33,253 nucleotides of DNA from Scenedesmus sp. PABB004 (GCA_014905635.1 JABVCE010000025.1:496001-529253); one strand, 5' to 3'. Positions 1,318 through 21,443 are shown, numbered from the stretch's first letter. Made by a program: numbers and translations. Notes: generated by a model from the letters alone, not told the origin.

Positions 1318-4300
1318 ATGATGCAGGGCGGCCCGCCCGGGGGCGCACCGCCCCCGGGCGCGCCTGGCGCGGCGCCGCAGCAGCTCGACCCGGAGCAGGC
1401 GGCGGCCATGCTGGAGGAGAAGGTGCGTCCCGGACGCCCCGATCGGCGCTCGCGCGCGGTCGGCCGGGCGCGGGGGGCGCGCGGCGCCGGCAGCAGCAGC
1501 CTCCCGCATGATGCCGGGCCGTGCGGGCGCCCCGCGGCGCGCCTGCGCCGGCGGGCGCGCCCCCTGGTGGCGCCGCGCCCGGGGCGCATGGGAGAGGCGC
1601 GAGCACGGCGCGGCGGCGGGCGCGCGGCGGCGCAGCGCGCGCCGACCGCGCGGCAGCAGCGGCGGCGGCGGCGGCGGCCGCGCGCCCTGCGCGCGCGGCT
1701 CCGCGCCGCGCCGCCGCGCGCGCGCACGCGGCAGTGCCGTCCTGCAGCGGGGCGGGGCGGGGCGAGCGCCGGCGGGCGCGGGCGGGCGCGCCGCGCCGGC
1801 GCCGCCGGCGTGTGGCAGCGCCGCCGCCCGCTCACCGCCGCGCGCCGCCGCCGCGCGCCGCGCCGCTGCTGCAGGTGCGCAAGTGGCAGACGCTCAACGG
1901 CAAGCGCTACGCGGAGAAGCGCAAGTATGGCTACACGCAGGCGCAGAAGGAGGAGATGCCGCCGGAGCACGTGCGCAAGGTCATCCGCGACCACGGCGAC
2001 ATGAGCAGCCGCAAGTTCCGCCACGACAAGCGCGTCTACCTCGGCGCCCTCAAGTTCGTGCCGCACGCGGTCTACAAGCTGCTGGAGAACATGCCCATGC
2101 CCTGGGAGCAGGCGCGCACGCCCGCGGCCGCGCCGCTGCTGCTGCGCGCCGCGGGCCGTGCGGCGGTGCGCCCCGCCGCCGCTGCCCACGCGCGCCCCCT
2201 CGCTGCGCCCCTGGCAGGTGCGGCACGTCAAGGTCATCTACCACATCACGGGCGCGATCACGTTTGTGAACGAGATCCCGTGGGTCATCGAGCCCGTGTA
2301 CCTGGCGCAGTGGGGCACGATGTGGATCATGATGCGCCGCGAGAAGCGCGACCGCCGGCACTTCAAGCGCATGCGCTTCCCGCCCTTTGACGACGAGGAG
2401 CCGCCGCTCGACTACGCCGACAACCTGCTGGAGGTCGACCCGCTCGAGGTGCGGGCGCGGCGCGGGGGCGCGCGGCACGGGGCAGGCGCGGGGCGCGCGC
2501 GGGCAGGCGCGGGCGAGGGCGGCGCGGGGCTGGCGCAGGGCGGCCGCCGACCGCCGCCGCCGGCGCGGCGGCGCGCAGGCGATCGAGCTGGAGCTGGACG
2601 AGGAGGAGGACGGCCCCGTGTACGAGTGGCTGTACGACCACCAGCCGCTCAAGTACACGCCCTTTGTCAACGGCCCGAGCTACCGGCGCTGGAAGCTGCC
2701 GCTGCCGGTGATGAGCGTGCTCTACCGCCTCGCCGGCCAGCTGCTCAGCGACTTTGTCGACAGGTGCGGACCGCACTGCAGCGCCGCGGCCGCGCCCGCG
2801 CACGCGGCTAGGCGCGCGGCCGGCCGGCCGGCCGCCGCCCCTCGGCCCGCGCCGCCGCGCCGCCGCGCCGCCGCGCCGCTGCCGCGCCGCCGCCGCCGCT
2901 GCCGCGCCGCCCACGCGCCACGCGCCCGCGCGCTCGCAGGAACTACTTTTACCTGTTTGAGCCGAGCGCGTTCATCACGGCCAAGAGCCTCAACATGTGC
3001 ATCCCGGGCGGGCCCAAGTTTGAGCCGCTCTTCCGCGACATGGACACGCGCGACGAGGACTGGAACGAGTTCAACGACATCAACAAGCTCATCATCAGGC
3101 GCGCGCCGCAGCGCAGCGCAGCGCAGCGCACAGGCCACAGCAGCGCAGTGCAGGCCACACAGCGCAGCGCGACGCAGCGCGGCGCAGCGCAGCGCAGCGC
3201 AGCGCAGCGCACAGGCCACAGCAGCGCAGCGCAGGCCACACAGCGCAGCGCAGGCCACACAGCGCAGCGCGGCGCAGCGCGGCGCAGCGCAGCGCAGCGC
3301 AGCACAGCACAGCACAGCGCACACGGCGCTGCGCGGCGCCGCGCCGCGCCGCGCCGCGCCGACGGCCACCGACCGTCGCGCGCCGCCGCTGCTGCGCAGG
3401 TCGCCGATCCGCACCGAGTACAAGGTCGCGTTCCCGTACCTCTACAACAACCGCCCTCGCAAGGTGCGGCTGGGCGTCTACCACGAGCCGCTGAGCATGT
3501 ACATCAAGACCGAGGACCCCGACCTGCCGGCCTTCTACTACGACCCCCTCATCCACCCGCTGCCCGCATACAAGAGCGGCCGCACCGGCAAGGGTGCGTG
3601 CGGCGGCCGCGCGCGGCTGCTGCGGGCGCGAGGCGCGCAGGAGAAGGGCGCGGCGCCGCGCGGGCCTCGCGCTCACGGCGGCGCGCTCCCCCGCGCCCTC
3701 GCGCGCGCGCGCAGAGGCTGAGGCGGCGGAGGACGACGCCGAGTTTGAGGCGTGGAGCCTGCCCGAGAGCGTGGAGCCGTTCCTGGCGGAGGCGCCGCTG
3801 TACACCGAGACCACGGCCGCCGGCATCGCGCTGCTCTGGGCGCCGCGGCCGTTCAACCAGCGCAGCGGGCACATGCGCCGCGCGTGCGACGTGCCGCTGG
3901 TCAACAGCTGGTTCATGGAGCACTGCCCGCAGCAGTACCCCGTCAAGGCGCGCGCTGCCCGCGCCCGCGCCCGCCTGCTGCGCCTGCTGCGCCTGCTGCA
4001 TGCCTGCTGTGCCTGCTGTGCCTGCTGCGCCTGCCGCCGCGCGCAACCTGACGCGCCGCACCCCGCGCCGCCTGGTGTGCCTGCCCGCCCGCGCGCGCGC
4101 GCGCAGGTGCGTGTGAGCTACCAGAAGCTGCTCAAGAACTACGTGCTCAACGCGCTGCACCACCGCCCGCCCAAGCCGACCAAGAAGAAGTACCTCCTGC
4201 GCGCGCTCAAGAACACCAAGTTCTTCCAGACCACCGAGCTCGACTGGGTCGAGGCGGGGCTGCAGGTGCGCGCGCGGCTGCGCCGCTGCGCGCCCGCGGC

Positions 4301-19700: not shown

Positions 19701-21443
19701 GCTGCTCGACGAGCCGACCAACCACCTCGACACCACCAACGTCGCGTGGCTGGAGAACTACCTCGTCACGCACGGCGACATCACCTGCATGACCGTCTCA
19801 CACGACAGGTGCGCCAGCGCCGCCACCAGCCGCGCCCGCGCCCGTCCGCCTGCTGCGGCGGCCGCCCCGGCCGCGGCCGGCCCGCGTCGCCCGCGCTGCC
19901 CCTGCCCACCCGCGCGCCGCGCCTGCCCTCCCGCCCGCGCGCCGTGCTGCCCGGTCTGCCAGCGGCTTCCTGGACAACGTGTGCACTGACATCATCCACT
20001 ATGAGAAGCGCCAGCTGCGCCGCTACAAGGGCAACCTCAGCGAGTTTGTCAAGGCCGTCCCCGCGGCCAAGAGCTACTACGAGCTCGAGGCCGCGACGCT
20101 CAAGTTCAGGTTCCCCACGCCCGGCCTGCTCGACGGCATCACCAGCAAGGAGAAGCCCATCGCCAAGCTCACCAACGTCACCTTCACCTACCCCGGCGCG
20201 GCGACGCCGCAGCTCACCGACGTCAACATCGCAGCCCGCCTCAGCAGCCGCGTCGCGGTCATCGGCGCCAACGGCGCCGGCAAGTCGGTGCGCAGCGCAG
20301 CGCAGCGCACGCACCGCGCCGCCGCCGCGTCTGCGCCCGCGCGCCCGCGCCGACCTTCTGCCCTTGACCGCCCGCCTGCCCCCCCAGACGCTGATCAAGA
20401 TCATCACCGGCGAGCACAAGTCGAGCAGCGGCACGGTGTGGCGGCACCCCAACCTGCGCATGGCGTACGTCGCGCAGCACGCGTTCCACCACTTGGAGGA
20501 GCACCTCGACACGACGCCGCTCAAGTACATGTTCAAGCGCTTCGGCCTCGGCCAGGACCAGGAGGACGCACACAAGGCGCGCGCCCGCACCAGCTCGACC
20601 GGCCGGCACGCGCCCAACCGCGCGCGCCGCGCTCCCGCGCCCCGCTGCGCGGCGCTCACACGCCCCGCCGCGCCGCACCGCCGCGCCGCGCAGGTCGACC
20701 GCCAGGCTGAGGAGGATGAGAAGAAGAAGATGGCCGAGGCGACCTGGGTCTTTGACGGCCACCCGCGCAAGTTCAGGGAGATTGTGAGCAGGCGCAAGAA
20801 GAAGAAGGGTGAGCCCCCCGCGCCCACGCCTCGCCGCGCCGGCGCCCACCCGGCGGCCCGCCTGCGTCTGCGCGCGCGCGCGCGCCACAGCCGCCCGCGC
20901 CCACCTCCCACCCACGCCCGCCCCTGCGCCCCGCCTGCGTCAGACTTTGAGTACGAGGTCGCGTGGCAGGGCCTCGCGTCGCTCAAGTTCAACCGCTGGC
21001 TGCCGCGCGCGGAGCTGGTGGAGAAGGGCTTCCGCAAGTTTGTGACCGAGTTTGACCAGCGCCTCGCGGCCGCGGCGCTCGGCAACGACGCGCGGCCGCT
21101 GAGCAAGGAGGGCATCACCAAGTTCCTCTCCGACTTTGGCCTGGAGCCCGAGTTTGGCGTGCACTCCAACATCCGCGGCCTCAGCGGCGGGCAGAAGGTC
21201 AAGCTCGTGCTCGCGGCGGCGATGTGGAACAACCCCCACCTCCTCATCATGGACGAGCCCACCAACTACCTCGACCGCGAGGCCCTCGGCGCGCTCGCCG
21301 CGGCGTGCCGCAGCTTTGACGGCGGCGTGCTGCTCATCAGCCACAACAGCGAGTTCACGAGCACCGTGTGCAGCGAGACCTGGCGCGTCGCGGGCGGCGT
21401 CGTCGAGGTCAGCCGCGAGGCGCCGCCGGGGCCCGCTGCGTGA
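16733..21443 (+). CDS. Translation elongation factor 3 (eEF3/New1-like ABCF ATPase), 13 exons, about 1025 aa
   Basis: Exons: 16733-17243, 17405-17565, 17720-17875, 18002-18153, 18269-18419, 18561-18772, 18917-19205, 19341-19466, 19618-19808, 19963-20287, 20388-20576, 20694-20808, 20944-21443. Sum 3078 nt, in frame. HEAT region ([47 protein letters not shown]). ABC1: [47 protein letters not shown]2: [19 protein letters not shown], chromo-like insert [34 protein letters not shown]. Confidence 0.93.

Follow-up and report, generated by a model that had tools for sequence, protein, structure and literature searches.

Frequent GC-AG introns with a common exon-AG donor motif in a G+C-rich stretch of green algal DNA

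Thirteen of the 45 introns verified in a G+C-rich DNA stretch of 33,253 nucleotides (referred to as the window), the sequence of which points to an organism of Sphaeropleales-type Chlorophyceae affinity, start with GC and end with AG, and all 13 donors conform to the strict motif AG/GCRCGS (the slash denotes the exon-intron boundary) that had been claimed in an earlier note on this DNA. This share of about three in ten is far above the usual 1-2% of GC-AG introns, since the probability of observing at least 13 such introns among 45 is 3e-12 at a rate of 2%; the count, which refers to the window only, is compatible with a rate of 22%. We consider it probable that these are ordinary introns of the U2 type in which the U at donor position +2 was replaced by C under G+C pressure, at sites that are recognized through their remaining positions. 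The verified set comprises the introns of three genes, encoding PRP8, eEF3 and SPOUT1, and leaves out a UBC-domain gene with nine introns (about 22066-25985) and a minus-strand gene at the left end of the window. With respect to the earlier count of 13 in 56, all 13 GC-AG introns were recovered, whereas the denominator is replaced by the 45 verified introns.

The PRP8 gene (1318..14295, plus strand) consists of 33 exons and 32 introns, 21 of the GT-AG and 11 of the GC-AG type, and specifies a product of 2340 residues in an open frame without a stop, the junctions of which were scored against up to four reference PRP8 proteins. The eEF3 gene (16733..21443, plus strand) contains 13 exons and 12 introns, including 11 GT-AG introns and a single GC-AG intron, and encodes 1025 residues; its C-terminal exon shows 91% identity to Tetradesmus. 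The SPOUT1 gene (14781..15922, minus strand), encoding a C9orf114-like methyltransferase, is composed of two coding exons that were matched to 4rg1_A with E values of 8.7e-5 and 1.4e-72 and that are separated by one GC-AG intron. The distribution of the GC-AG introns over the three genes is the one given in the earlier note. The G+C content determined per 2 kb ranges from 72 to 89% across the window, so that the high G+C content of GC-AG-rich algal genomes is present here at window scale. The PRP8 exons have a G+C content of 64% with a GC3 value of 97%, the PRP8 introns one of 86%, and intron interiors contain 86.6% G+C and 6.9% T.

For 31 of the 32 PRP8 introns all pairs of donors and acceptors near the exon ends were enumerated, no dinucleotide being assumed, and the joined peptides were ranked by their score against the reference proteins; intron 1 (1423-1874, GT) was placed by eye. 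The GC-AG solution was top-ranked for the donors at 2112, 3099, 3948, 7259, 7736, 9171, 11098, 11477, 12498 and 13083, and ranked second at 5064, 0.3 points below a solution with GA..GC ends, whereas the remaining 20 introns of the enumeration are GT-AG. At nine PRP8 sites the best GT-AG alternative scored 28 to 89 points below the GC-AG solution. The PRP8 introns with the donor CAG/GCGCGC, all on the plus strand as are the others of this gene, are located at 2112..2217 (106 nt, after residue 114; score 239 versus 211 for the best GT alternative, which would add 18 residues), 3099..3399 (301 nt; 219 versus 173.5), 7736..7862 (127 nt; 196.2, with zero GT-AG candidates), 11477..11711 (235 nt; 218 versus 180.5) and 13083..13299 (217 nt; 187.5 versus 107.5). 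The donor AAG/GCGCGC belongs to the introns at 3948..4106 (159 nt; 159.8 versus 157.8), 5064..5193 (130 nt; 216.2 versus 156.8) and 12498..12647 (150 nt; 217.5 versus 128.5), the donor CAG/GCGCGG to those at 7259..7420 (162 nt; 182.7 versus 114.3) and 11098..11254 (157 nt; 209 versus 165), and CAG/GCACGC to the intron at 9171..9345 (175 nt; 223.8 versus 173.2). The rival GT donor at 3942, 6 nt upstream of the donor at 3948 and 2 points lower in score, would delete the residues VK, and it looked nearly as good because VK is missing at this site from one of the references, the rice gene model P0071. The peptide PVKVRVSYQ is present in 37 of 38 relatives, for which reason P0071 was rejected as a reference at 3948, and only the GC donor yields this peptide.

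The GC-AG intron of eEF3 (20577..20693, plus strand, 117 nt, donor AAG/GCGCGC) obtained a junction score of 178.3, compared with 81.3 for the best GT donor and 129.3 for read-through, and the Tetradesmus eEF3 protein (P0121) is contiguous across this junction. In the SPOUT1 gene, the intron at 15615..15733 (minus strand, 119 nt, donor CAG/GCACGC at 15733 and acceptor end at 15615) is flanked by exons that align gap-free to residues 5-36 and 37-309 of 4rg1_A, with the junction at residues 36/37. All 13 GC-AG introns were thereby placed at the positions previously proposed, and each of them is needed for a contiguous conserved protein.

Removal of the GC-AG introns restores a contiguous and conserved reading frame according to homology scoring, and the 11 PRP8 junctions are free of inserts in all 38 relatives. 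Nine of the 13 GC-AG introns, including eight of the 11 in PRP8, would shift the frame if retained, as their length is not divisible by three. The other four, at 3948, 7259 and 12498 in PRP8 and at 20577 in eEF3, preserve the frame and contain no stop codon, and their read-through could in principle give inserts of 39-54 residues. These four introns would fit the view that the GC donors are artefacts, caused either by errors of sequencing or assembly at position +2 or by coding inserts misread as introns, as would the fact that the sequencing runs compared come from relatives and not from the window's organism. We attach a negligible probability to this view, because it is implausible that thirteen independent errors would all hit donor +2 exactly and spare every other motif position, and because the frame-shifting introns and the uninterrupted proteins of the 38 relatives speak against it. 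Moreover, the same motif is found in the independent assembly of a related alga, designated L006, for which a PRP8 model with 44 introns gives an open frame of 2334 residues.

For the 20 sequencing runs listed, the share of sampled words found was at most 0.07. RNA contigs from four runs (X1, X2, X4 and X16) were compared with the window at 90% likeness; they differ from it at about one letter in ten and are therefore assigned to other organisms, that is, to relatives. The joints in these contigs show only that the relatives' mRNAs are colinear with the modelled exon junctions. At the 9171 intron a contig of X2 joins positions 9167/9343 with four letters fitting either side, at the 11098 intron a contig of X2 joins 11094/11252 with three letters fitting either side, and at the 11477 intron contigs of X2 and X16 join 11474/11713, with CGC in between in X2. 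We infer from the genomic sequence that the 13 predicted GC donors are spliced in vivo.

The 45 donors can be divided into two classes, AG/GYGCG and NN/GTGAG, and the presence of an exon-terminal AG is anticorrelated with A at +4 (2/30/10/3, p=5e-6). The GC donors are confined to the AG/GYGCG class, of which they represent 13 of 29, and none is found in the NN/GTGAG class. An exon AG is present in 13/13 GC donors versus 19/32 GT donors (p=0.009), the same numbers apply to C at +4 (13/13 versus 19/32, p=0.009), and the combined pattern AG/G.RCG occurs in 13/13 versus 16/32 (p=0.0014). The exon-AG counts are consistent with the heavier reliance on pairing between U5 loop 1 and the exon that had been suggested earlier, and the confinement of the GC donors to the exon-AG class points to contacts of the exon end with U5, and not to U1 pairing, as the feature that makes C at +2 tolerable. 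Additionally, G is present at -1 and at +5 in 13/13 GC donors, which is the compensation known from U2-type GC-AG introns. The earlier claim that the donors lack the usual compensation is accordingly correct with regard to the absent AAGT, but not with regard to -1G and +5G, which are retained as in human GC sites. The donors are not of the U12 type, since all 13 read GCRCGS and none contains TATCC, the U12-type donor consensus being RTATCCTT (as quoted in PMC2846911). The sequence AGGCRCGS occurs 19 times on the PRP8 sense strand, and 11 of these occurrences are real donors. A pairing of the intron ends by means of GCGCGC at both ends was considered from the acceptor sequences and set aside: GCGCGCAG terminates only two to three of the 11 GC introns and is found at the end of GT introns too.

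The commonest donor in the window's organism is AG/GTGCGC, and the GC donors correspond to this sequence with one T-to-C change. In the reading that we favour, the organism would be under extreme G+C pressure, caused by GC-biased gene conversion, biased mutation or both, and its commonest donor is already GC-rich. The T-to-C change would then persist only at sites where recognition is carried jointly by -1G, +5G and the exon-end AG, which contacts U5 loop 1 and U1, and standard snRNAs would suffice for the use of GC donors. The proportion of GC in the permissive class AG/GYGCG is 45% (13/29), compared with a C/(C+T) ratio of 0.95 in nearby intron sequence, which indicates that T at +2 is still favoured in the window.

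The comparison of orthologous intron positions proposed in the earlier note did reveal GT-to-GC switches. In the PRP8 gene of L006, 23 of 44 introns are GC-AG introns with the same motif. The window has GC at residue 114 (the 2112 intron), where the relatives L061 and L004 have GT, and at residue 1984 (the 12498 intron), where L006 and L061 have GT, whereas GT in the window is opposed to GC in L006 at residues 501, 1199, 1850 and 2197. L006 and L061 have 24 positions in common; at 11 of them L006 shows GC where L061 shows GT, and the opposite combination does not occur. The GT-to-GC switches at orthologous positions are independent in the two lineages. The G+C content at intron positions 9-30 of L006 is 0.78 in introns with GC donors versus 0.66 in those with GT donors (p=0.015). 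By itself, G+C content fails to account for the GC donors, because the intron interiors of L006 have only 63% G+C, yet 23/44 GC donors, while the relatives L064 (71% G+C) and L028 (64%) have GC donors in 0/8 and 0/4 introns, respectively. In the permissive class of L006, 81% of the donors are GC (17/21) versus a local C/(C+T) ratio of 0.76, so that position +2 looks neutral in this alga and the strength of constraint differs between the two lineages.

This apparent lack of constraint in L006, along with the missing GC donors in the high-GC relatives L064 and L028, which makes composition alone insufficient, would agree with a spliceosome that has been re-tuned in the lineages of the window and of L006 to accept C at +2 about as well as U in AG/GYGCG. 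The agents could be variant or modified snRNAs (the U1 5' end, the U6 ACAGA box or U5 loop 1) or proteins (U1C, LUC7 or the U6 m6A writer), and GC donors would accumulate because discrimination is lost and not merely because of composition. AG/GCGCGC would mismatch the canonical U1 end at +2, +4 and +6. Extended to some chlorophyte lineages, the idea would imply that proofreading of the 5' splice site has changed at the level of whole lineages, via snRNA modification or a protein factor, with L006 near the end state and the window's organism part-way. Such a change would have repeated origins, would leave no trace in the PRP8 sequence and would be systematically missed in annotation, given the preference of gene finders for GT. 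In either form we regard a re-tuned spliceosome as unlikely. The retention of T at +2 in the window, far over the neutral expectation, argues against it. PRP8 lines the catalytic centre, and the PRP8 proteins of the window and L006 share no unusual substitution beyond one K-to-R change: among 1360 highly conserved columns the window differs at 15 and L006 at 5, with this one in common. Convergence of PRP8 between the two lineages rich in GC donors was thus rejected as a candidate, the shared change being conservative, and the PRP8 protein of the window is conventional. A search for snRNA genes in the window gave no Rfam match at gathering score. In the accessible text of Iwata and Gotoh the abundance of GC-AG introns is called 'an enigma', and base modifications or U1 snRNP proteins are suggested (PMC3033335). 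The same text, however, gives a canonical U1 5' end, AUACUUACCUG, for the GC-AG-rich Aureococcus anophagefferens and Micromonas pusilla as well as for Micromonas RCC299, the reference with 2.7% GC-AG introns.

The intron positions also bear on the possibility that the GC introns derive from an introner, a mobile element generating introns, which would have inserted recently and supplied the GC donor itself. Of the 32 PRP8 intron positions of the window, 24 have no counterpart in L006 and L061, and these include nine of the 11 with GC donors, which would be in line with such insertions; according to the accessible part of PMC11282704, introner-derived introns of some dinoflagellates mostly have GC-AG borders. 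GC introns are followed more often than GT introns by an exon beginning with GT (10/13 versus 10/32, p=0.008), but this difference weakens within the permissive class (10/13 versus 7/16, p=0.13). Since, moreover, the lengths of the GC introns spread from 106 to 301 nt and two of them occupy old, shared positions, an introner origin seems very unlikely to us. An introner sequence family was not found among the 45 introns, the mean local score being 16.2 versus 14.5-14.8 for shuffled sequences, and the best-scoring pairs rest on microsatellite-like runs (simple repeats).

The independent switching likewise affects the suggestion that the excess of GC donors in PRP8 constitutes an autoregulatory sensor, in which weak donors in the gene of a core splicing factor would sense splicing capacity or fidelity. 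A comparison of 11/32 in PRP8 with the 2/24 counted elsewhere in the earlier note gives p=0.028, on an unverified denominator that leans towards GT calls, and the abundance of GC donors in the PRP8 gene of L006 may point the same way. The homology-verified introns of eEF3 and SPOUT1 (2/13) alone give p=0.29, and inside the permissive class the numbers are 11/23 for PRP8 and 2/6 for the others (p=0.66), permissive-class donors being commoner in PRP8 (23/32 versus 6/13). The window and L006 do not have their GC donors at the same intron positions, and these donors switch independently, which argues against a conserved regulatory device in PRP8. The sensor proposal is therefore not supported by the verified introns and appears scarcely credible.

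Returning to ordinary U2-type introns with C at +2, the current understanding of GC-AG introns is not overturned by those of the window. In the window's organism and in similar GC-rich green algae, gene predictors that do not admit GC donors will fail at about one third of the introns in conserved genes, and the motif AG/GCRCGS is specific enough to be modelled, as judged from its occurrences in PRP8. Abundant GC-AG introns have already been described in other GC-rich algae, so that the window represents one more case, to which the confinement of its GC donors to the exon-AG class adds a new detail; a statement of this restriction was not found in the accessible portions of the literature on GC-AG-rich algae. 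A report of GC-AG richness in Sphaeropleales-type Chlorophyceae was not found in the literature, although the tables of PMC3033335, PMC7072748 and PMC6310983 may list more green algae. With introns of 86% G+C the window is an extreme case for the question, raised in 2011, of GC-AG abundance in GC-rich algae, and L006 adds a second green lineage to it.

The GC-AG shares in the accessible text of Iwata and Gotoh (2011, PMC3033335) are 39.6% for Aureococcus anophagefferens, 22.2% for Micromonas pusilla and 7.7% for Chlorella sp., two of the listed species being green, and these authors too found G+C alone insufficient. The window resembles their algae in the large share of GC donors, the canonical AG acceptors and the very high G+C content, but its introns reach 86% G+C compared with genomes of 64-70%, and its share is derived from 45 introns of three genes and is not genome-wide. 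A share of 14-17% is given for pelagophytes in the available part of a preprint (bioRxiv 10.1101/2024.10.30.620910). In Emiliania huxleyi, GC donors make up about 56-60% of junctions according to the accessible text of Feldmesser et al. (2014, PMC4028052), and, as in the window, GC donors are common, are attributed to high genomic G+C and are combined with AG acceptors; GT-preferring gene predictors mis-call GC junctions there and likewise here. E. huxleyi is a haptophyte in which nine GC junctions were confirmed by RT-PCR, whereas the junctions of the window are predicted from genomic DNA. The two donor classes of the window correspond, by the anticorrelation of exon AG and +4A, to the published 5' splice-site classes AG//GUNNN (U5 loop 1) and NN//GURAG (U6 ACAGA box), as given in the accessible parts of PMC9803359 and PMC11732430, with the difference that the exon-AG class of the window has a fixed GC-rich GYGCG and takes all GC donors. 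The GC 5' splice sites of human and plants, which account for about 1% of introns, are likewise of the U2 type, and invariant -1G and +5G are reported for the human sites in the accessible part of PMC11732430. The human sites approach AG/GCAAGU, whereas those of the window carry C at +4 in 13/13 cases and C or G at +6 and consequently form fewer pairs with the canonical U1 end, and the frequency of GC donors in the window is 20-30 times that of the human and plant GC sites.

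The exon-intron structure of the PRP8 gene was deduced by placing ungapped tblastn segments of nine partial PRP8 proteins on the window. For 31 of the 32 introns, all donor and acceptor positions within approximately 100 nt of the exon ends were enumerated with no dinucleotide assumed, and the joined peptides that lacked a stop were each compared by score with as many as four reference proteins; intron 1, a GT intron, was placed by eye. The resulting model specifies a frame of 2340 residues with zero stops. GC-AG was the top-ranked solution at positions 2112, 3099, 3948, 7259, 7736, 9171, 11098, 11477, 12498 and 13083, and the 20 other enumerated introns are GT-AG. 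At 5064, GC-AG ranks second by 0.3 points to a solution with GA..GC ends. The best GT-AG alternative at nine of the GC sites scores 28-89 points lower and gains or loses 5-25 residues, and zero GT alternatives exist at 7736. A GT donor located 6 nt upstream of 3948 is only 2 points lower, but it would delete 'VK' and was ruled out, as the peptide PVKVRVSYQ is present in 37 of 38 relatives.

The eEF3 gene contains 12 introns, 11 of the GT type and a single GC intron at 20577-20693 (117 nt, in frame and stop-free), for which the GC solution scores 178, read-through 129 and the best GT solution 81. On the minus strand, the two SPOUT1 exons match residues 5-36 and 37-309, respectively, of 4rg1_A, a human protein of solved structure, and thereby fix a 119-nt GC-AG intron at 15733..15615. 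Accordingly, all 13 GC-AG sites that an earlier note had claimed from the bare sequence were confirmed by homology (11 in PRP8 and one each in eEF3 and SPOUT1), and the strict donor motif AG|GCRCGS claimed there fits each of them. That note had counted 56 introns, 45 of which were verified; the verified set covers PRP8, eEF3 and SPOUT1 and excludes the UBC gene and the gene at the left end. Of the 11 GC introns in PRP8, three are in frame and stop-free, and the other eight have lengths that are not a multiple of three. In total, nine GC introns are frame-shifting; neither errors in sequencing nor coding inserts can account for these nine, or for the occurrence of the same motif in an independent assembly.

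The fraction of sampled words present was at most 0.07 in each of the 20 RNA runs listed for the window, and the contigs from four runs differ from the window by about 10%, so that these RNA contigs come from other organisms. The joints 9167/9343, 11094/11252 and 11474/11713 in contigs of run X2 agree with the junctions at the GC introns 9171, 11098 and 11477, the last joint being present in run X16 as well. These joints show only that the mRNAs of relatives are colinear at the respective junctions, and the use of GC donors by the organism itself is predicted from homology.

The DNA of the window is of eukaryotic nuclear origin and extremely GC-rich, at 72-89% G+C per 2 kb. Because the longest PRP8 exon shares 89% identity with PRP8 of Tetrabaena (with fragments at 94-95%) and the C-terminal eEF3 exon shares 91% identity with Tetradesmus obliquus and 78% with Raphidocelis and Monoraphidium, we infer that the source is a green alga near the Sphaeropleales. 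A minus-strand coding region at 1-860, with an apparent start near 853, reaches the left window edge, and a tandem array at 26105-33253 (172-bp unit, 41.7 copies, 98% matches, about 88% G+C) extends to the window end and is probably a satellite at the contig end. Many introns carry short tandem runs of GCGCAGC-like and GGCGC-like units, for example 3099-3399 and 13083-13299, and these runs explain why a few intron pairs reach high alignment scores. The longest PRP8 intron, intron 15 (6404-6953, 550 nt), contains an AT-richer island that looks like a C/D-box snoRNA, with a weak Rfam match to snoZ188 at 6522-6616 (18.5 bits, E=0.46, gathering score 50), and a second candidate snoRNA near 6700-6790 was recognized by eye only; at the gathering score, zero Rfam families were found in the whole window.

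A comparison of the 45 verified donors revealed a common context of the GC sites. An exon-end AG is present in 13/13 GC donors versus 19/32 GT donors (p=0.009), as is C at +4 (13/13 versus 19/32, p=0.009), whereas G at +5 is found in 13/13 and 29/32, respectively, and the full context AG|G.RCG in 13/13 versus 16/32 (p=0.0014). Moreover, exon-AG and A at +4 are nearly exclusive (both in two donors, AG only in 30, +4A only in 10 and neither in three; p=5e-6), and the donors therefore fall into two classes, AG|GYGCG and NN|GTGAG, which are counterparts of the published classes AG//GUNNN (U5 loop 1) and NN//GURAG (U6 ACAGA) (PMC11732430). The GC donors are confined to the AG|GYGCG class, where they account for 13 of 29 sites, and thus represent the commonest donor of the organism with one T-to-C change. 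They likewise retain the -1G and +5G that are kept at human GC sites (PMC11732430). The motif AGGCRCGS is informative for donors, since 11 of its 19 occurrences on the PRP8 sense strand are actual donors. Additionally, the exon downstream of a GC intron begins with GT in 10/13 cases versus 10/32 after GT introns (p=0.008, 45 donors), a difference that fades within the AG|GYRCG class (10/13 versus 7/16, p=0.13).

Metagenome contigs were scanned once with a central PRP8 exon, which yielded 80 loci. Most of these are intron-poor or cDNA-like, and two of them, L006 and L061, are intron-rich genes of the green type. The L006 locus (63% G+C) has a stop-free model translation of 2334 residues and 44 introns, including 23 GC-AG introns with the AG|GCGCGC motif, one of them weakly resolved; of 35 introns in L061 (54% G+C), 33 were kept and one is clearly GC-AG. 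L006 and L061 have 24 intron positions in common, the window shares eight with L006 and seven with L061, and intron turnover between these green lineages is heavy. The absence of 24 of the 32 PRP8 positions of the window, including 9 of 11 GC introns, from both L006 and L061 would suit an origin of the introns from introners, but this origin is unlikely because the introns form no sequence family (mean local score 16.2 versus 14.5-14.8 for shuffled sequences, with the top pairs owed to simple repeats). The comparison of orthologous positions proposed in the earlier note did uncover GT-to-GC switches. Residues 114 and 1984 are GC in the window and GT in the relatives, residues 501, 1199, 1850 and 2197 are GT in the window and GC in L006, and at 11 of the 24 positions common to L006 and L061 the donor is GC in the former and GT in the latter, with zero cases of the reverse. 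Therefore, GT-to-GC switches occurred independently in at least two lineages. A further PRP8 locus, L056:3868-12644, has coding segments separated by five gaps of 0.8-1.7 kb, at which the best canonical splice pairs score 12-38 points under the unconstrained top; these gaps may represent insertions or introns with non-canonical borders.

The share of GC donors does not follow from bulk composition alone: intron interiors have 86.6% G+C (T 6.9%) in the window and 62.6% (T 21%) in L006, and GC donors number 0/8 in the PRP8 locus L064 (71%) and 0/4 in L028 (64%). A local GC-biased process fits the gradient in the introns of L006:1350-18808, where G+C amounts to 0.83-0.88 within 12 nt of either exon and drops to 0.59 in the middle third (exon GC3 0.96), and the composition of positions 9-30 in this locus, with G+C of 0.78 in GC-donor versus 0.66 in GT-donor introns (p=0.015). 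Within the AG|GYGCG class, 17/21 donors are GC in L006, compared with 0.76 for the local C/(C+T), and 13/29 in the window, compared with 0.95; position +2 therefore seems to be close to neutral in L006, and in the window selection still seems to favour T. Most likely, GC-biased pressure would drive T-to-C changes at donor position +2, and only donors of the exon-AG/+5G class would tolerate C at this position.

A spliceosome re-tuned in this lineage, as suggested in the earlier note, is a rather improbable cause. The PRP8 protein is conventional: of 1360 columns with a consensus of 95% or more, 15 deviate in the window and five in L006, and only one conservative K-to-R change is shared. The first 11 nt of U1 are the canonical AUACUUACCUG in the GC-AG-rich Aureococcus and Micromonas pusilla and likewise in Micromonas RCC299 (2.7% GC-AG; the reference there), and the cause of the GC-AG abundance is left open by the authors of that study (PMC3033335). 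The suggested heavier reliance on the exon-end/U5 contact agrees with the class restriction of the GC donors. The idea of PRP8 as an autoregulatory sensor of splicing fidelity found no support, with 11/32 GC donors in PRP8 versus 2/13 in the other verified introns (p=0.29) and 11/23 versus 2/6 within the AG|GYGCG class (p=0.66), to which 23/32 PRP8 donors and 6/13 of the others belong. The 2/24 originally set against PRP8 gives p=0.028, with a denominator of unverified models in which GT would be the default call.

A search of open-access papers found no report of abundant GC-AG introns in Sphaeropleales-type algae and none of a restriction of GC donors to one donor class. Genome G+C correlates with splice-site G+C across kingdoms (PMC7072748). 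Iwata and Gotoh (2011; PMC3033335) gave the share of GC-AG introns as 39.6% for Aureococcus, 22.2% for Micromonas pusilla and 7.7% for Chlorella sp., tied these values to high G+C and noted that further factors have to be at work. Shares of 14-17% are given for pelagophytes (bioRxiv 10.1101/2024.10.30.620910), and GC donors make up about 56-60% in Emiliania huxleyi, some of them confirmed by RT-PCR (PMC4028052). The share of 13/45 in three genes is compatible with 22%, only borderline so with 40%, and differs widely from both 2% and 7.7%. Judged by homology, the window is a further case of a known kind, the GC-rich algae in which U2-type GC-AG introns are abundant.
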